The translations under genes were made by a program, and so were the position numbers. The notes beneath the pieces were generated by a model. That model worked only from the letters and a program-made list of their open reading frames with translations, ran no database searches and was not told the DNA's origin. Source: an uncultured delta proteobacterium (GTDB lineage Bacteria; Desulfobacterota; Binatia; Binatales; Binataceae). Taken from it: a stretch of DNA of 64,000 nt. Where the stretch lies: contig CAWIHG010000005.1 of NCBI GenBank assembly GCA_963835905.1, forward strand, positions 1,396,018 to 1,460,017, in the 5' to 3' direction. This document shows, piece by piece, positions 15,342 through 61,267 of this stretch (positions are counted from its first letter, which is position 1; each line of letters starts with the position of its first letter).

Positions 15342-16382
15342 CTAAGCTCTGAATTCAGGATTCTCAGGCAGCGGCGCGACGGCGGCGCCTGGAAACTGAA
15401 CCAGGTCGGTTCGCCACCAGACCAGAAAGGTCTCGAAGTCCAACGCGTCGACGGCCAAGCCGACCAAATTCTCCGCCAACACGTCAACGTCCCGATCATC
15501 CAAAGTCGCTCGCTTAGGGGAATTGGAACGGTAGAAGTAGAGTATGAACCCCGGATACAGTGCAGTATGCGGCGGCAAGTCGTTTATCTCCGCCTGGCTC
15601 CCGGAGGGTCCGCTCGGCTCCGTTCCCGGCATACCGTTTGAAATCACCAGATTTCTCTCAGAATCGTCGTCCGGTTGGCCCGGGATCCACAAAGCATACG
15701 CTGGGCTGACGACTTTGGACTGCCGGTCAAGCCGAAGGAACCTCCCAACGGCATCGTCGAGCAGGGTGTTGGGGTTCAGGGGATAACCAAGTCCATCTTC
15801 CGGACACGAATGCTCCCAGTCGTCTATCATCTCCGGCTGCGCGTCGTCCGGTAATATCGCGAAGAAGCTCCCCTTCAATATATCTATTCTCTCGCGCACC
15901 TTTTCGCGGACGAAGCTGCCCGTCAGTTGCTCTAATAGATACTCCGCCGCTTTGTCGGATTCGTTCACCGGATGCCAGACAAGCCTGGTCCTTTGAGGAT
16001 AATGGACAGTGCTGGTTACGTCATCGATAAGGTACCGCACTCCGACCTTTAGGCCGCTCAGGCGGCGCAGTATTTCTGGCGGTAGGTCGAGGTCCACATC
16101 GGGATCGTCAATCCAGCAGTCGATAGTGACTCGCTTGCCGATGGGAAGTTCTTCTACGCCGCTTTGTCGCGCTTCCAGAAAATCACACCAATACTCAATC
16201 TGGGCGCCGGGGCGCATCGTGGTCCTGAGTGAAGCATCGATGTGTCGTATCCACAATCCCGTAAAGAATTTGACGTTATCGGCACGCTCCATCCAGTCGC
16301 TGTCGACGCCCAGGACCTTCGAGACGTAGTCGGGGTCGACTCCTTCAACCCGCAACGAAACTCGGCTGTACTGCTGTTTCAT
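15342..16382 (-). CDS. Hypothetical protein (346 aa), possibly tandem DUF4279-like
   Basis: Lower GC (~55%). The N-terminus VSLRVEGVDPDYVSKVLGV resembles DUF4279-type proteins by recollection. Its start overlaps the end of rhs fragment 3. Confidence 0.55.
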   Translation of the reverse strand: MKQQYSRVSLRVEGVDPDYVSKVLGVDSDWMERADNVKFFTGLWIRHIDASLRTTMRPGAQIEYWCDFLEARQSGVEELPIGKRVTIDCWIDDPDVDLDLPPEILRRLSGLKVGVRYLIDDVTSTVHYPQRTRLVWHPVNESDKAAEYLLEQLTGSFVREKVRERIDILKGSFFAILPDDAQPEMIDDWEHSCPEDGLGYPLNPNTLLDDAVGRFLRLDRQSKVVSPAYALWIPGQPDDDSERNLVISNGMPGTEPSGPSGSQAEINDLPPHTALYPGFILYFYRSNSPKRATLDDRDVDVLAENLVGLAVDALDFETFLVWWRTDLVQFPGAAVAPLPENPEFRA

Positions 16383-16700
16383 GATCCTGCAAGGCCAGCG
16401 CCGCGACCATCAGCGTCGCGATACTGCCGCTCGAATTCACAAGAGCAATCGTACTGCCGAGCGCATCACGCAGCAACGCTACGCTTCCCGTCGAATCGGT
16501 GCTCACAAACCCGTCATCAAGCCACAACCCCGACAGAATGTCGATCTTTCCGCTGATCGATGACTGCACCCGCGCCGCGTTGATCCCGTCGTTCACGTAA
16601 TTGTCGATGATTGTCCCGGTGTTCTGCTGGACCCTTCTGCCCAGCGCGTCGTACCTTGTTTGTGCGGCGGACGAGAGTATCTGAGCGGGACGTGCTCTGA
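16345..16700 (-). pseudogene. Orphan rhs fragment 3 (YD-repeat / core region only, no start, truncated)
   Basis: Translation ...TRYDALGRRVQQNTGTIIDNYVNDGINAARVQSSISGKIDILSGLWLDDGFVSTDSTGSVALLRDALGSTIALVNSSGSIATL then runs out of frame; the expected YEPFG...NPY...RARYY...DPxGL tail is missing. Confidence 0.55.
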
Positions 16701-16873
16701 CCGCAGAACCGCAGATCTGCCGGAGATACGCTCTCGATGTGGACCTATCTCTGGGTGTAGGTCAGGGGTGCGGACCGTTTCCACGCGCCGCCTTCTAACC
16801 GCGGATCGCTCCGCCAATCGCGTAGGCATGAGCGAACTGAGGCGTTAAAGATTCCGCGTCTGACTGCTCCTAC

Positions 16874-17377
16874 TCAAGCGGCCCAGCTCAACACGAGAAT
16901 TATCAACAGCGCCGCTACCACGGCCCACGCGAAGGCACTGGCGAGAGCGTCAAACTCCAGCGGGCCATGAAACGTTCCCATGGTGTTCATAAAACTGACC
17001 TCAACTGGCCCAAAGTTGAGGGTGTCACCACCCCTGATTCGCGTACTCCGCTCAATCCGCCGTCCGTTGATAAAGGTTCCGCGCGTCGAACCCAGATCCT
17101 CGACAAAATATCGATCGAGAAACCGCCGCGTAATTTTGGCATGATGCGCGGCGACTTGAGGATCCGCGATCAGCACGCCGCAGTCACTCGCACTGCCAAT
17201 CAGCGTCTCACGCCAGCCGAGGGTGTGTTCGTGGCGGCCTGAACCGTCGATCCTCAGCAAGTACGTCGGTTTTTCCTCGGGTGGGCGAGGACCATCATAG
17301 CCAGGGATGGGCCTCAAACCGAACCGACCGGGAGGACCGGTGGCTTGCTGAGACCGATTATGGCGATATTTACCCAT
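16874..17377 (-). CDS. FHA-domain protein with C-terminal transmembrane anchor
   Basis: FHA signature GSASDCGVLIADPQVAAHHAKI...VEDLGSTRGTFINGRRIE...GDTLNFGPV, and C-terminal helix FAWAVVAALLIILVLSWAA. Confidence 0.65.
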   Translation of the reverse strand: MGKYRHNRSQQATGPPGRFGLRPIPGYDGPRPPEEKPTYLLRIDGSGRHEHTLGWRETLIGSASDCGVLIADPQVAAHHAKITRRFLDRYFVEDLGSTRGTFINGRRIERSTRIRGGDTLNFGPVEVSFMNTMGTFHGPLEFDALASAFAWAVVAALLIILVLSWAA

Positions 17378-17525: not shown

Positions 17526-18077
17526 TCACGCAGCCGCGCCGGATTTGCCGCTGACTCCGGACTTGTGGGCGCTATGTCTCACTTTGAACGGTACAATGAT
17601 TCCAATTGCACAAATAGCTCCGACTGCGATCAGGGGCCAACTCTGCAGTGCTAGCCCTTCCACAATGCCGACAGTCGCAAGCGCGGCGGATCCAATTCCA
17701 ATCGGAACTGCCCGACGTTCCTTCGGTACAAGGCGCAGCCAGAGAGCGACAATGAAGGCGGTCGTCGAAAGCGGAACCACTGCTAAGTGATCCTCGGTTA
17801 GAAGAAATACCGCCAGCGCCAGTCCTGATAACGAGAACAGGAAGCCGATCGCCTCGATGACTAAACGAAACGTCAGCGAGGAAGAGGTGCGCATCTGCCA
17901 TCCAAGCGAAAGGCCCACAACCCCGCCTAGTGCGCTTGAACCGGCAAGTATCGGCAATTCGGCGGCCCCGGCGACACTCCAGAAGCAATAACCGATCACT
18001 GCTCCGACCAGCACGCCTACGGAAACGAGTCCAGCCAAAAACGCAATATCACGGTTCTCCTCGTTCATCGTGGGCAC
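17526..18077 (-). CDS. Multi-TM membrane protein, candidate immunity protein for the upstream rhs-tip toxin
   Basis: 183 aa with about five predicted TM helices. Lies immediately downstream of the orphan toxin domain and has low GC. Confidence 0.5.
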   Translation of the reverse strand: MPTMNEENRDIAFLAGLVSVGVLVGAVIGYCFWSVAGAAELPILAGSSALGGVVGLSLGWQMRTSSSLTFRLVIEAIGFLFSLSGLALAVFLLTEDHLAVVPLSTTAFIVALWLRLVPKERRAVPIGIGSAALATVGIVEGLALQSWPLIAVGAICAIGIIVPFKVRHSAHKSGVSGKSGAAA

Positions 18078-18134
18078 CTCCTCAGCTGAGCACGCTTACT
18101 TCCGCGGCGAGTGTCGCTTGATCTCCGAACGGAG

Positions 18135-19105
18135 TTAGGGGCTGGGAGCCGCCGGTCCTGCTATTCCGGGGGCACCTGCAGCACCTTGAAAGAGCATTGA
18201 ATCTATAAGCCCGTCTTCAACGATTGCGACGGTGGCGCCCACGGCCATTCCGAGGAGCACACCTATCGCGATACCGGGCAGGCCCCCGATCTCACCAATG
18301 GCGGCGCCGATTTCGGCAAACTCCTCGATGTCTAGAGGTATCAGTGCGGCGCGGGCGAAGAGCTGCCCAGTCGAGGGCTGAATGCCAGAAAGGCTGCCGG
18401 GTGCGCCGACGCTCGGTCCCGACACAGCGGCCATCTCGCCTGCCCCGATGCCCGCGTCTGCCTCGGCAACGCCAAGCGGGGAGTTGGCTCCGGATTGCGC
18501 GGCTTCGTATGCAGCGATCTGGCCCGCAGTATCATTCTCAGATGAATCGCCTCCTGAACCGCCGCCTCCAGTAGCCGAGTTGTTTCCGCCTGCACCTCCA
18601 GCGCCGGGGCCCGAGTGGACCCACTCCCAACCGTTAAAGGTTTTCACGGCAGCCCACGCGTCGTCGGCCGATCCTCCGCCGCGACCCGTGGGGTCTGTGA
18701 GCTTCGTCGGAGCGTCCCCGACATACGCGAAGAAATTGGGCTGGCCGCCGCCGAGTCCCAGCGGGTCGGACGAGATGAAGCGGCTGCGAGGCGCGCCCGA
18801 GCAGCCGTCCTGAGCCGCCCGGCGAAGGACCCCCACAGCGGATTGTAATAGCGCGCGCGCATGAAGTAGAGCCCGCTTTGATCCAACTCGCGCCCCGCAA
18901 ACGCGTAAGGATTCGTCGTCGATGCGCCGCTGGTCGAGGTCTTGCCGAACGGCTCATACGTGTCTTGGGTGGCCAGACTTCCGCCCGAGTTCACGAGCCC
19001 GATCGTACTGCCGAGCGCGTCGCGCAGCAACGCCACGCTTCCCGTGGAATCGGTGCTCGCAATTTCATCATGCGGTGACAGAACTGAGGAGCCTTGGTCG
19101 AGCAT
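18135..19105 (-). pseudogene. Orphan rhs C-terminal tip 2 with Gly-rich toxin domain (frameshifted)
   Basis: Frame 1 gives STDSTGSVALLRDALGSTIGLVNSGGSLATQDTYEPFGKTSTSGASTTNPYAFAGRELDQSGLYFMRARYYNPLWGSF. A frame switch then gives RFISSDPLGLGGGQPNFFAYVGDAPTKLTDPTGR plus a ~190-aa Gly-rich domain ending in a glycine-zipper helix GLPGIAIGVLLGMAVGATVAIV. Confidence 0.6.
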
Positions 19106-19152: not shown

Positions 19153-19920
19153 TTATCTCAAGAAATAAGGCGCTATGATAAACAGGGCACCATCAAGCAG
19201 CGAGTGTGCGATCACGCAGGTTCCAACGTTCCGTCGCCAGACGTACAAAAGGACCAAAACCAGTTGTGGCAACAGGAACGTGTAAAGCACCTTCAAGCCC
19301 CAATCGCTGTGAGCAATCATCGAGCCCGCTAACGCCGCACAAGCGCCCCAGAAAATGCTTCCTGACCAGGTTTCGAATCGTTCTATCACATAGCCACGGC
19401 CGCATTCTTCGACCATCGCATCCCAAATCACCGCCACCGCTCGAGCCCATACGGGGAGGGCGAGGGCACGTTCAATTACGGATGTAAGGGCGGGATTGGC
19501 ATCTTGGATGCCGAATACCCAGAAAAGAATGTAGGCCTCGGCGTAAGCCAGAAGAAAACAAGAAAAAACCCCTGCGAGCGCGGGCGGAATTTCAGTAAGA
19601 GTTGGCAGCCGCCAGCCCGCCGACGCCAAAGGCTGGCGCTCCCAGCGGGTGATTATTGCCGCGAGGAAGACTATTGGCGAAAGAGCGTAAACCGCAGCTG
19701 CACCGCGCCCCAATTCGCTGGAGAACCGAACGTGTCCCAATACCTCGGTCACCTGCGGAATATCCGGAAGCAATACGAGGCCATAAGCCGACAGGACGCC
19801 CGCAAATAAGGCAGCTGGATTGACTCGTCGACGCAGGGCCGGCTCATCTGCGCATGTTTTAGTCCCTATTTTCAGAGCGTTTGGTTGTTCTCCTGTCGCA
19901 TTGCTACTGGTCACATGCAA
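19153..19920 (-). CDS. CPBP family intramembrane metalloprotease (Abi/CAAX-protease-like), candidate immunity protein
   Basis: Motif 1 EECGRGYVIERF (EExxxR), motif 2 FWGACAALAGSMIAHS (FxxxH), motif 3 HSLLDGA. Start overlaps the stop of the upstream toxin ORF by 10 nt. Confidence 0.7.
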   Translation of the reverse strand: MHVTSSNATGEQPNALKIGTKTCADEPALRRRVNPAALFAGVLSAYGLVLLPDIPQVTEVLGHVRFSSELGRGAAAVYALSPIVFLAAIITRWERQPLASAGWRLPTLTEIPPALAGVFSCFLLAYAEAYILFWVFGIQDANPALTSVIERALALPVWARAVAVIWDAMVEECGRGYVIERFETWSGSIFWGACAALAGSMIAHSDWGLKVLYTFLLPQLVLVLLYVWRRNVGTCVIAHSLLDGALFIIAPYFLR

Positions 19921-20900
19921 GCTCCGGACAGACTCAGGCCGTTGGGTGCTTGCATCATAGGGGCATCCGGCCGCTCAAGGCTCGCTGCGTTCAGAATGGC
20001 CCGCGCCGCAGAACCGAGTGTCGAGCAACCGGAATAGAATGAGGCCTGCGTCGTGGTGTTCGGCACGAAATCCAGATTCGAGTAACTCGGCAAATTCATC
20101 ACGGGCGGGAGATGAATGCGCGGATCTCCAAATATATATATCGCGAGTTTTCCGAGTAACGTAAAGAATACTCCTCCAAAACCCAGAATATACTTGGGCT
20201 TCGGCTTCGGCGTTGGCGTTGGTTTCGGCTTCTGCTTTTGCTTTGGCGCTGGCGGAGGAGGATCGGGTGGTGTCGGAGGCGGGCCGGGGCTGCCGCCCCA
20301 CACTTCGCCCGTTGGATCGACGAAGTTCATCGGGCTGTTGCCGACATACGCGAAGAAATTCACCTGGCCGCCGCCGAGACCGAGCGGATCTTGCGAGATA
20401 AAGCGGCTGAGCAAGGGATTGTAGTACCTCGCGCGCATGAAATAGAGCCCGGATGCGTCCAGCTCGCGCCCCGCGAACGCATACGGATTCGTCGTCGAAG
20501 ACCCGCTGCGCGAGGTCTTCCCGAACGGCTCGTATCCGTAACTCGTCGCGATGCTGCCGCCCGAGTTCACGAACCCAATCGTACTGCCGAGCGCGTCGCG
20601 CAGCAACGCCACCGCTCCCGCTGGAATCCGTGCTCGCAAACCAGTCATCGAGCCACAGCCCCGACAGAATGTCGATATTCCCGCTCATCGAGGACTGCAC
20701 CTGGACGGCGTTAAGCCCGTCGTAAACGTAGTTGTCTATCGTTGTCCCGGTATTCTGATGGACCCGCCGCCCCATCGCGTCGGACCGCTCGAATGGCAGC
20801 GTGTCAACCAGAAGCCGATGCGGTGTGTTTTCGCGCACGTGTACTCCGTAGTGAGAAGTGCTATAGTAATTCGGGATGGATATGAGGTTGCACAGGCGAA
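19911..20900 (-). pseudogene. Orphan rhs C-terminal tip 1: RHS core end + Pro/Lys-rich linker + small C-terminal toxin (one +1 frameshift)
   Basis: ...YVYDGLNAVQVQSSMSGNIDILSGLWLDDWFASTDSSGS, then a frameshift (one inserted g), then AVALLRDALGSTIGFVNSGGSIATSYGYEPFGKTSRSGSSTTNPYAFAGRELDASGLYFMRARYYNPLLSRFISQDPLGLGGGQVNFFAYVGNSPMNFVDPTGE. Followed by PPPTPPDPPPPAPKQKQKPKPTPTPKPKPK and a ~110-aa low-GC toxin with a hydrophobic helix YILGFGGVFFTLLGKLAIYIFG. Confidence 0.6.
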
Positions 20901-58672: not shown

Positions 58673-59530
58673 CTACCCCGTTTCAGTAGACAGAGTTGGG
58701 CTTGTGCGGAATTCCGCTGGATGGCTCCTTTGGTAGTTGATAGGCGAGAGATAGTCGAGGGCCGAATGGCGGCGGTGAGGTTTGTACCAACCTTCGATAA
58801 AATCGAACACCGCCATCCGCGCCTGGGCCTGGGTTCTGAAGTTTTGTCGGTTGAGCAGCTCGGATTCGAGAGTGGCGAAGAAGCTCTCGCACATGGCGTT
58901 GTCAAAACAGTCGCCCACCGAACCCATCGAGGGCCGCCCCCGGCCTGTTCGCAACGCTTCCGAAGGCGACCGACGTATATTGGCTGCCTTGGTCGGAATG
59001 ATGGATCACGCCGGCGGGACGGCGCTGTACCAGCGCCATGTCAAGGTCTTTGAGTACCAGCTCGGTACGCAGATAAGTCTTCATCGCCCAACCCACTATC
59101 CGGCGGCTGAAGACGTCGAGCACCACGGCCAGATAGAGAAGGCCGGCCCAGGTTGGAATGTAGGTGATGTCGGCCACCACAAACGGTTGGGCGCCGCGGC
59201 GGTGAAGTTGCGTTCGACCAGGTCGGGCGCCGGCCGGGCGGCGCGATCACGCACCGTAGTGATGATCCAGTTGCACCACCCCCGGATCACGGTCCGGGGG
59301 CCGGCTGCGCGCATCAATCGCGCCACGCGTTTGATGCCCGCCCTAATGCCTTGCTCCGCGAGGTCGACAGGGATGCGCGGCGCGCCATAGGTCCGGCGCG
59401 AGCGACGATGGATCTCGGCGATCCGCGCGCTCAACTCGGCGTCCGCGCGAGCTCGTGCCGAGGGCGGACGCTTGAGCCGCGCGTAATAGCCACCGGGGGA
59501 GACCGCCCAGTACGCGGCACCTGGTGGCAA
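58673..59530 (-). mobile_element. IS3-family transposase (orfB) remnant, fragmented over three frames
   Basis: ORFs 59096..59530, 58902..59180 and 58673..58954 together give ...RRTYGAPRIPVDLAEQGIRAGIKRVARLMRAAG.../...VADITYIPTWAGLLYLAVVLDVFSRRIVGWAM...IHHSDQGSQYTSVAF.../...DNAMCESFFATLESELLNRQNF...ARMAVFDFIEGWYKPHRRHSALDYLSP. That is a DDE transposase with frameshifts. No orfA was found. Confidence 0.7.
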
Positions 59531-59919
59531 TCCGATGTATGGCCCGGTTAGCCCCTACGAATGCGAACGCCGCGATGGGTCCGTTTATATTTTTTCCGGT
59601 GCGCGCGCAGGCACCCTCTCTCCGCCGCTCCGACCCTCGCTCCGGCACCGCCGCTGCGCGATTGATCGTGACCTGTCGCAAGCGGGGGGCAAGGCAAGCG
59701 CACGCTTCCCCCGCGCTCTGTGCGAGCGGTTTTCCGGCGCTCGCCGATTGCGGAAGCGGGATAAGCGCGCCCCTGTGATGAGCGGGCATCAAGGCAACAG
59801 CACCTTGTGGCGGACCGAGCGGGCGTTAGCGATTTCGGGCTGAGGGCAAACGGCGCTGCGAGCGGCGCCATCGGACTGACTATTAGTCTAAAGACTCGCC
59901 GCTGCTTGTCAAGCCCGTT

Positions 59920-61267
59920 TCAGGCGGTGGCGTCATTTTCGCGGCCGGTGAACTGATATGGATTGGTGCTCGATGCGCGCGACGCCGTCGTGTTCCCGAA
60001 CGGTTCGTAGGTGTATGAAGTCTGAATTGCTCCTGCGGAATCCGCGAGCGCCAGCGTGCTTCCGAGCGTATCGGTCAGGAAGTCGCGACTGCCGGCGGAG
60101 TCGGTCCTCTGAAAGTACTCGTCGATGTTCAGCCCGGTGAGTAGATTTGCCGACGGGCTCCCGGACTGGATTTCCTGCACTGGATTCAGGCCGTCATACA
60201 GGAACTGGGTCGTGGTTCCTGCAATAGTTTTGCTGACCCGCCGGCCGAGCGCGTCGTACCCGAAGCTGGCCGTCACCGCACCGCTGATCCCAACCAAATG
60301 ATTGCGCGCATCCCAGCTATAGGTGTTGCTGCCATCGTTGGTCAGGTTTCCATTCGCATCATAGGTCATCACGGTCCCGTTGAACGAAGTCATCTCGTTG
60401 TCCGCGTTGAACGTGTTCCCCGTCACCGCTTGCGGCAGATTCGTCTCCGCCATGCTGCCCGTCTTCTCGATGACGCGCCCGTCGGCATCATAGCTGTATT
60501 CCAGGTCGCCGATCTGGTTGCCCGCCAGCGTCCAGGTCATCCCGCTCACCCGCGAGTCGGCGTTCCTTTGGCGCAGAGGGCCCCTCTCGCTGCCCCTTCG
60601 CTTTCGCTCAGGGCTGCGGCTCCAATCGGGCGCCGAAGCGGCGGCTCAGGACAGGCTCCACTATATGTCACCACTATCCCATTGGGCAGCGTGAGCTGCG
60701 TCCTTCGATTGGCGTTGTCATATTGGAACGCAACCGAGCCGGTTCCCTGCGTAACTCCTGTCAATCGGTTCGCATTGTCCCACGTGTACGAGACCTGCGT
60801 CTGCCCCGCCACCGTCAGCGTCGCCCGCCGGTTCGCGTTGTCGTAGCTGTAGCTCACCTCGCCCAGCGGGGTCTGCTCGTCGGTCAAACGATCGAGACCG
60901 TCATAGGTCCGCGCGATCGTCCCGGCGATCGAGTCCGTCGCTCCGGTGAGGCGATTTCCGCCGTCCCACGTATAGCTGATTGAGCTCTGATATCCGCTGC
61001 CGTTGTAGCCATAGCCCGCGAAGGTGCGGCGGTTGAGGCCATCGTAGCTGTATTTCGTGATGTTTCCATCGCGATCGGTGTGCTGGGTCAGGTTTCCGTT
61101 ACCGTCATAGGAATAGTTCTCGACTGCATTCAGCGCGTCTGTGCGCGAACTCCGGCGGTCCATGTTGTCGTACGTGTACCTGGTCTGGTTCGCGTTGGCG
61201 TCGGTGACTGAAGTGAGGTCGCCGCCGGTATAGCTGAAGTGGACCGTAGCGCCCGCCGCGTTGTTGA
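59920..61267 (-). pseudogene. rhs-family YD-repeat protein, internal fragment (no start, C-terminus truncated, internal frame break)
   Basis: YD repeats: YSYDGNGNLTQHTDRDGNITKYSYDGLNRRT, YTWDNANRLTGV, FQYDNANRRTQLTLPNGIVVTY. A frame break near 60550-60662 is followed by EYSYDADGRVIEKTG...YDANGNLTNDG...YDALGRRVSKT...YEPFGNTTASRASSTNPYQFTGRENDATA, then a stop exactly where RHS cores continue (GLYY.RARYY). There is an upstream in-frame stop at 61268-61270 and no Met. Confidence 0.65.

Follow-up and report, generated by a model that had tools for sequence, protein, structure and literature searches.

Within a 64,000-nucleotide stretch of DNA from an uncultured delta proteobacterium (contig CAWIHG010000005.1; this whole stretch is hereafter called the window) we analysed two overlapping genes: an open reading frame (ORF) that carries the end of an Rhs core together with a variable C-terminal tip, and a gene encoding a polytopic membrane protein of the CPBP family. 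We consider it fairly likely that this locus is an orphan polymorphic Rhs cassette, in which a membrane-active tip is paired with an Abi/CPBP-type immunity protein. A toxin/immunity pair is favoured over a general processing factor because the partner gene travels with the variable tip in orphan cassettes, is translationally coupled to it and co-varies with the tip type; the make-up of the tip, with one hydrophobic helix, no globular fold and no enzyme match, in turn suggests a non-enzymatic, membrane-active peptide.

Anatomy of the cassette

The initial annotation of this DNA had placed the tip on an rhs gene; it sits in fact on a 5'-truncated orphan cassette, the first of three, whose frame is broken by an extra G at position 20621. 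The cassette is composed as follows:

20622..20838, minus strand: 5' part of the orphan Rhs core of module 1; the frame from GTG 20838 reads ...NYVYDGLNAVQVQSSMSGNIDILSGLWLDDWFASTDS
20621, minus strand: extra G (CCA[G]CGGG) causing a frameshift with respect to modules 2 and 3 (three-module DNA alignment)
19911-20648, minus strand: ORF of 245 amino acids (aa) from inside the Rhs core to the end of the tip, reading ...NFVDPTGE-VWGGSPGPPPTPPDPPPPAPKQKQKPKPTPTPKPKPK-YILGFGGVFFTLLGKLAIYIFG-, then 71 residues
20307..20648, minus strand: Rhs-associated core end, residues 1-114 of the 245-aa ORF, ending ...RFISQDPLGLGGGQVNFFAYVGNSPMNFVDPTG
20193..20306, minus strand: Pro/Lys-rich linker of 38 aa, EVWGGSPGPPPTPPDPPPPAPKQKQKPKPTPTPKPKPK
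20127..20192, minus strand: YILGFGGVFFTLLGKLAIYIFG, the hydrophobic helix, whose position 15 is a Lys
19911..20126, minus strand: tip tail of 71 aa, DPRIHLPPVMNLPSYSNLDFVPNTTTQASFYSGCSTLGSAARAILNAASLERPDAPMMQAPNGLSLSGACM, and its stop codon (TGA, 19911-19913)
19153..19920, minus strand: gene for the CPBP (Rce1-like, 'Abi') polytopic membrane protein

The strings initially quoted after DPTGE, the linker and then YILGFGGVFFTLLGKLAIYIFG, proved exact, and the further stretch said to follow them is present, although it counts 71 rather than some 80 residues; the tip, put at about 110 aa, measures 93 aa after the linker (135-aa tip with the linker included). The core upstream of DPTGE was confirmed as Rhs by TIGR03696 (Rhs_assc_core), which matches residues 39-114 of the 245-aa ORF at 86.6 bits (cutoff 32.5), and the predicted self-cleavage motif region (DPxGL ... 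DPxG; ...ISQDPLGLGGGQVNFFAYVGNSPMNFVDPTGE) lies directly before the variable tip. The core part of the cassette, its recombination handle, corresponds to the last ~190 codons of an Rhs core: upstream of the 245-aa ORF lie about 75 core codons, interrupted by the frameshift at 20621, and then non-coding DNA, with no YD/RHS-repeat shell found in frame upstream of the cassette and no intact rhs within the 64 kb of the window. This 5' part shows 81% DNA identity to module 3 (repeat D3), and positions 20605-20781 are matched when the full-length Rhs of a related locus (L003, see below) is used as tblastn query. In silico deletion of G 20621 yields a single ORF of 308 aa, from 20838 to 19911, whose repaired translation is colinear with the intact 280-aa orphan ORF of metagenome contig L008. 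The extra G could be an assembly error; an independent short-read contig (L007), in which the residues of the tip tail are identical, does not extend over the site.

The tip and the CPBP gene share a base composition that sets them apart from their surroundings. The figure of about 50% GC originally given for the tip was roughly right (0.54 for the tip and 0.56 for the gene that follows), and the break in composition was confirmed: at third codon positions the GC content (GC3) of the tip and of the CPBP gene is 0.57, compared with 0.77 for the part that belongs to the Rhs core and 0.78-0.86 for the genes around it. The fall from 0.77 to 0.57 occurs exactly at the core/tip junction and is the classic composition break between an Rhs core and its foreign tip. 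As had been noted from the start, the next gene overlaps the tip: GTG 19914 and the TGA of the tip share the letters GTGA, and the conserved codons at the tip end include the GGAG ribosome-binding site of the CPBP gene. The CPBP protein has 253 aa from GTG 19914, at which the public 253-aa protein (P0001) begins, or 255 aa from the alternative start TTG 19920. Whereas the CPBP ORF is thus present in public annotation, the 245-aa ORF is absent from the recorded gene calls.

The CPBP protein

The assignment of the second gene to CPBP was borne out by the family's profile: its product matches Pfam PF02517 (Rce1-like) over positions 4-91 of the 93 in the model and scores 30.4 bits, above the gathering score of 22.4 (E = 4.9e-7). 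Three CPBP motifs, EExxxR, FxxxH and HxxxD, had been read in the protein; the last of these is there literally, whereas the other two take variant forms (regular expression search and family alignment):

19396..19410, minus strand: variant motif 1, EECGR (EExxR; canonical EExxxR)
19309..19323, minus strand: variant motif 2, SMIAH (canonical FxxxH)
19192..19206, minus strand: motif 3, HSLLD (HxxxD; canonical HxxxN/D)

Neither EExxxR nor FxxxH was found in the window CPBP by regular expression. All 9 members of the family alignment share one Glu, both His and the Asp; within motif 2 it is the His that is invariant, the Phe being replaced by Ser in close relatives. When motif 1 is aligned on the RGY that follows it, the distant canonical protein P0009 reads EEMFFRG and the Rhs-linked clade [VIM]EE[CF]GRG, with the Glu pair shifted by one. 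The first Glu of EExxxR is the residue that we take to be the catalytic Glu in Rce1.

An AlphaFold2 (AF2) model built from nine family sequences is almost all helical, with a predicted local distance difference test score (pLDDT) of 77.6 and a predicted template modelling score of 0.72, and on this model the CPBP protein is predicted to have an Rce1-type helical membrane fold. A Foldseek search with the protein returned nothing, and its sequence profile gave chance matches only against PDB sequences. The ratio of non-synonymous to synonymous substitution rates of the CPBP is 0.35-0.55 within the best-sampled subgroup, an estimate that is indicative only, with four sequences and, for the tips, 55-77 codons.

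The pair in related genomes

Close relatives of the CPBP are few: only eight were found among 5.8 billion proteins, at 42-50% identity across the family alignment. All eight directly follow a Pro-rich linker and a short tip or, in one locus (L005), the remnant of a tip, and tblastn with the end of the window core located an Rhs core upstream in every locus whose contig reaches far enough. Conversely, none of the CPBPs at <=37% identity adjoins Rhs (tblastn; genome and metagenome scans with the CPBP alignment), the scans having added distant, Rhs-unlinked CPBPs only. A distant CPBP in L014 (5725-7014, 33% identity) is fused to TPR repeats and has no adjoining Rhs; its motif 1 is TTELAVRGY, in which the one Glu left is that shared by all of the Rhs-linked clade.

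The initial annotation had proposed looking for the same kind of tip and CPBP behind full-length rhs genes elsewhere, and such an arrangement was found in L003: here the CPBP gene (P0004; L003/L004, 15 contigs) overlaps the stop codon of a full-length Rhs of 1149 aa with an N-terminal signal-peptide-like segment, DUF6531 and RHS_repeat at 155 bits. In this region of L003 (4049-8016) the Rhs has a Sec-type signal peptide and not a PAAR or VgrG-linked N-terminus; it is preceded by a 173-aa signal-peptide protein with an RHS repeat, which overlaps the Rhs start by 4 nucleotides (nt), and the genes downstream, including ParB_N/N6_N4 methylase and DUF5681, look phage- or mobile-element-like. Two further relatives, P0005 (L001/L002) and P0002 (L008), follow orphan Rhs fragments. 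P0003, P0007 and P0008 lie on contigs of 1-2 kb, in which the linker/tip side is visible and the ends precede any core, and P0006 (L005) is an intact CPBP that follows just the last 58 aa of a tip. Downstream of the CPBP gene P0007 in L022 (1199-1780) lies a further orphan Rhs core end, whose tip is of another, Gly/Ala-rich kind, which indicates that arrays of orphan cassettes recur in related genomes. The relatives are labelled Candidatus Binataceae or 'delta proteobacterium' metagenome-assembled genomes; the Rhs-linked CPBP clade is rare and confined to uncultured soil lineages.

Among the loci the tip sequences have diverged almost beyond recognition. At 5/6 junctions (window, L001, L003, L021 and L022) the stop and start codons overlap as [AGT]TGA (4 nt), and in L008, L003, L001, L022 and L023 the tip comes after a comparable Pro-rich linker (containing K, T or Q). 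The layout of the whole tip is common to the window, L008, L003, L001 and L022: a Pro-rich spacer of 35-50 aa, one hydrophobic stretch and a short, largely Pro-rich tail; in each case a Lys or Arg interrupts the hydrophobic run some 13-15 residues from its start. As for the remaining loci, the L021 contig shows the tip end only, and in the L023 tip the linker is present but a hydrophobic helix is not obvious. CPBP identity groups follow the tip types; the CPBP closest to that of the window, P0002 of L008 (50%), is paired with the sole tip homologous to the window tip.

These associations bear on the idea that the CPBP ('Abi') gene serves in phage abortive infection or defence and only happens to lie beside Rhs debris. 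The historical labelling of PF02517 proteins as abortive-infection proteins speaks for such a role. We nevertheless regard it as extremely unlikely: no protein of the array matches PADLOC, the gene is translationally coupled to the tip in 5/6 loci, and it stands after an Rhs tip in 8/8 close relatives.

The tip

A hydropathy scan of the 245-aa ORF revealed a single hydrophobic segment at residues 154-172, with a Kyte-Doolittle mean of 1.87 over 19 residues. In an AF2 model of the tip alone, calculated from the single sequence and used for helix positions only, not for fold search, a helix is placed at residues 47-64, where pLDDT blocks of 10 residues average 64, 77 and 58; the model as a whole has a low pLDDT of 56, shows a possible second helix of low confidence and contains no globular domain.

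Sequence searches placed the tip in no known toxin family or any other. Against Pfam and NCBIfam no enzyme or other family match of meaning was obtained, and a phmmer search of the full set of PDB chain sequences, with the 135-aa tip as query, had 0 matches at E <= 10; a match to a known non-toxin domain, which would have spoken against a toxin, was accordingly not among the results of these searches. A word-indexed search of 5.8 billion proteins with the 93-aa tip found nothing, as did a profile of the window and L008 tips. The L008 tip is the sole detectable homologue (BLASTP E = 5e-6 over the C-terminal ...PDAP...SGAC), and no similarity was seen between the window tip and the L003-type tip. 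Two matches from exhaustive HMMER searching of 1.84 billion representatives were rejected, being long repeat proteins that sum many weak repeats and not homologues. A CAAX-like C-terminal Cys signal was likewise discarded: the window and L008 tips end SGAC[MA], with the Cys at -2 and not -4, and other tip types end WRYA, LAPA or SNLQ. The same applies to a C-terminal lipobox, which is off consensus and meaningless at the C-terminus.

A tip that consists of little beyond a linker and a helix could also be no toxin at all, but a membrane anchor or sorting signal for a CPBP-type sorting protease of the MrtJ/JDVT-CTERM or myxosortase kind. Several CPBP proteases do serve C-terminal signals with a transmembrane helix (NCBIfam models), and MrtJ matches weakly here; the scores, however, stay well below threshold (MrtJ 12.5 bits against a cutoff of 75; MroQ 13.5 against 270). 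Sorting signals put the motif, helix and basic cluster at the extreme C-terminus, whereas in these tips 50-71 residues come after the helix (71 in the window) and there is no terminal basic cluster. Moreover, the region follows the Rhs self-cleavage motif and is swapped with other tips in orphan arrays, as a toxin domain would be, and the tip sequences vary far too much to serve as a recognition signal. We therefore hold a sorting function to be very improbable.

Proposed function of the pair

In the toxin/immunity reading that we favour, the tip would be a small, non-enzymatic, membrane-active toxin. The Rhs core would cut itself at DPxG and release the Pro/Lys spacer with one hydrophobic helix, its buried Lys and a short tail; the released piece would then insert into the cytoplasmic membrane of the target and disturb its barrier or potential, in a manner similar to the hydrophobic C-terminal fragment of Tse5 and to class II bacteriocin peptides. 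The CPBP would be the cognate immunity protein and would act inside the membrane, for which two modes can be envisaged: either the Glu/His/His/Asp site cuts the incoming helix, as in the model for Abi-type bacteriocin immunity, or the CPBP bundle holds the helix without cutting, as SpdC holds the helix of SagB. SpdC binds the single transmembrane helix of SagB along TM3 in a non-catalytic manner (bioRxiv 10.1101/2020.05.21.109470). Of the two modes we slightly prefer cutting, given that none of the four putative catalytic residues varies within the family. A more specific proposal, which we put forward tentatively and rate as possible at best, is that the dedicated CPBP clade provides enzymatic Rhs immunity, recognising the tip helix in the bilayer, perhaps via a contact between the Lys/Arg and the Glu pair, and cutting it; the suggestion that the Lys or Arg of the tip helices might contact the Glu pair of the CPBP is speculation.

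The invariant residues would also be in keeping with a different role, in which the CPBP is a maturation or release protease that clips the linker/helix junction in the membrane of the producer and so activates or exports the peptide. SagE is thought to act as such a protease for streptolysin S. Processing of bacteriocins and of signal peptides has been reported for CAAX proteases (PMC9298176), and PrsW, a relative of CPBP, has been proposed as a toxin-processing peptidase that is sometimes RHS-linked (Zhang et al. 2012, PMC3482391). The junction between linker and helix would lie at the membrane surface, where such enzymes cut, and the greater conservation of the CPBP than of the tip also fits an enzyme of this kind. 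However, PrsW domains are N-terminal and constant within the toxin, whereas the CPBP moves with each variable tip and occupies the position of an immunity gene. The CPBP is furthermore intact where the tip is truncated (L005) or frameshifted (window), which fits an immunity gene better than a maturation enzyme, since an enzyme dedicated to a lost substrate would have no reason to persist. Finally, no other candidate immunity gene comes after the CPBP in the window, L001 or L022, the next feature in L022 being the Rhs cassette described above. Maturation thus appears unlikely to us as the function of the CPBP, and immunity the better explanation.

Several observations weigh against a toxin/immunity pair. 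We infer toxicity and protection from gene order alone; the tip has almost no homologues and its Pro-rich tail is poorly conserved; and the charged residue in the middle of the helix means that the helix may not span the membrane. The CPBP also shows stronger conservation than the tip, the opposite of what is seen in most toxin/immunity pairs. With the position of the canonical first Glu occupied by Val, Ile or Met, protease activity of the CPBP is, from its sequence, uncertain, and bacterial CAAX proteases also serve as peptide-processing enzymes or receptors (PMC9298176). Delivery is a further point: no genes of a type VI secretion system (T6SS) were found near the window array or L003, whose Rhs has a Sec signal.

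The pairing had initially been called one that is less often described, and indeed we found no published pairing of CPBP with Rhs or with polymorphic-toxin immunity in the searchable literature. According to Zhang et al. 2012 (PMC3482391), immunity to polymorphic toxins is almost always conferred by non-enzymatic binders, typically unrelated to enzymatic domains, and CPBP is named there just as a distant relative of PrsW, a proposed N-terminal processing peptidase; a 2026 Morganella survey filed CPBP genes near T6SS loci under 'miscellaneous'. The pairing itself is robust, and an immunity protein of protease fold would be unusual, even though the components and the logic are otherwise familiar. 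If the CPBP does cleave the tip, this would represent catalytic, toxin-destroying immunity in a polymorphic toxin system, and bacterial CPBPs, the roles of which are largely unclear, would gain a defined natural substrate; the pair is of interest in that it could reveal such a substrate. It is also small (135-aa tip, 253-aa CPBP) and readily testable by heterologous expression.

The tandem array and the state of the window copy

The cassette belongs to an array of three Rhs core-end fragments in tandem on the minus strand, which start near 20838, 19105 and 16740 and share 67-82% DNA identity; each is followed by its own distinct tip and a distinct downstream ORF. The other features of the array, and the one piece of Rhs sequence in the window that lies outside it, are:

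17526-19105, minus strand: module 2, second orphan Rhs cassette; a 47-nt insertion (18789-18835) breaks the core end
16874-17377, minus strand: ORF coding for an FHA domain (PF00498, 64 bits) and, at the C-terminus, a transmembrane helix, between modules 2 and 3
15342-16740, minus strand: module 3, third Rhs core fragment, truncated right after ...NSSGSIAT, before the DPxGL motif
58673-61163 region, minus strand: Rhs shell fragment in two ORFs, 59920-60549 and 60546-61163 (RHS_repeat, 43 and 90 bits)

The tip of module 2 is Gly-rich, with a glycine-zipper-like hydrophobic stretch (GIAIGVLLGMAVGATVAIV), and is followed by a multi-pass membrane ORF of 183 aa (17526-18077) without family match; module 2 may be another pair of membrane toxin and membrane immunity protein. 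The core of module 3 overlaps the start of a 346-aa ORF (15342-16382) that has no Pfam, NCBIfam or PADLOC match. The Rhs piece at 59.9-61.2 kb (59920-61163) stops abruptly at ...FTGRENDATA beside a frameshifted IS3-like transposase, whose HTH_21, rve and rve_3 domains are spread over three ORFs (58673-59530). Damage is therefore seen in every Rhs element of the window, be it a frameshift, the 47-nt insertion, truncation or the cut by an insertion sequence (IS). The flanks of the array are ordinary (a PD40 propeller protein, an alpha/beta hydrolase, a GNAT acetyltransferase and a metallo-beta-lactamase-fold protein), and neither T6SS genes nor tRNA were found near it.

Such damage raises the question of whether the window copy is a decaying relic, with a tip ORF and a CPBP gene that are neither expressed nor functional and have no present role. 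The broken frame at 20621, the missing Rhs shell, the damage to modules 2 and 3, the IS-truncated second Rhs piece and the omission of the 245-aa ORF from gene records are all in keeping with this, as is the result of a promoter scan, which found no sigma-70-like promoter upstream of the cassette and which says little for this lineage. On the other side, the CPBP ORF is complete, with all conserved residues, and is annotated publicly as P0001; the tip ORF is open for 245 codons; and the frameshift could, as mentioned, be an assembly error. Orphan cassettes can also be reactivated by recombination with a main rhs gene, according to PMC3967940. We judge a copy wholly without present role to be improbable, and this explanation bears on the state of the window copy alone and not on the nature of the pair. 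What we envisage is an array of decayed orphan cassettes with the two halves of the pair in different states. The toxin half is probably dead, given the absent Rhs shell, the frame broken at 20621 and an ORF that no gene caller recorded; the CPBP, because its ORF is intact, has probably persisted as an orphan immunity gene that guards against neighbours still producing the toxin. The retention of orphan immunity genes is known (PMC10539506).

Comparison with known systems

The array resembles the orphan rhs-CT/rhsI modules of Poole et al. 2011 (PMC3150448) and Koskiniemi et al. 2014 (PMC3967940): tandem, 5'-truncated cores each carry their own tip and a downstream gene, and a homologous stretch of core could recombine with a main rhs gene. 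It differs from them in that no main rhs lies beside the window array and that all three modules are damaged.

As regards the tip, a comparable domain is Tox-WTIP (PMC3482391), likewise a small, highly hydrophobic, non-catalytic C-terminal domain on RHS proteins with a basic residue in its first helix, for which no immunity protein is listed in that paper. The window tip, in contrast, is without RxxR and Wx[ST]IP (regular expression search) and has one clear helix rather than two.

To our knowledge, membrane-acting Rhs tips are few, with Tse5 as the worked example; its immunity protein, Tsi5, is a small membrane protein. Tse5 of Pseudomonas aeruginosa is an Rhs protein with an encapsulated, pore-forming C-terminal fragment (PMC10684867, PMC9637101), and the likeness to the window tip, for which membrane action is our suggestion, lies in a C-terminal Rhs fragment that is hydrophobic, non-enzymatic and membrane-acting. 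The two tips nonetheless share no sequence similarity (the phmmer search of the PDB reported above, assuming that it included the Tse5 cryo-EM entry), the window tip has one helix where Tse5 has several, and the partner here has a predicted protease fold. Tse5 also travels via the T6SS, whereas the L003 relative has a Sec signal and no T6SS genes nearby.

For the CPBP itself, the complex of SpdC and SagB from Staphylococcus aureus (PDB 6u0o) offers a precedent for the holding of a helix, although SpdC is a non-catalytic scaffold for a cell-wall hydrolase, and is unrelated to toxins; the window CPBP retains all putative catalytic residues. One of the two closest parallels, the other being Tse5, is the Abi/CPBP immunity of class II bacteriocins (SkkI, PlnI; Kjos et al. 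2010, as cited in PMC9298176), where CAAX/Abi proteins are reported to confer bacteriocin immunity: as here, a polytopic CPBP directly follows, and is co-expressed with, a small hydrophobic peptide, the membrane activity of which we infer in the present case, and the Abi proteins keep the same conserved Glu, His, His and Asn/Asp positions as the window CPBP. In place of a free bacteriocin exported by its leader, however, the peptide here is the C-terminal tip of an Rhs protein behind a self-cleavage motif and a 38-aa Pro/Lys spacer, the host belongs to a Gram-negative-type soil lineage instead of the lactic acid bacteria, motif 1 is EExxR and motif 2 has no Phe, and immunity is putative. A tip-specific partner of protease fold would in this way link two fields that have been separate, the Abi/CPBP bacteriocin immunity of Gram-positive bacteria and Rhs delivery of the Gram-negative type.

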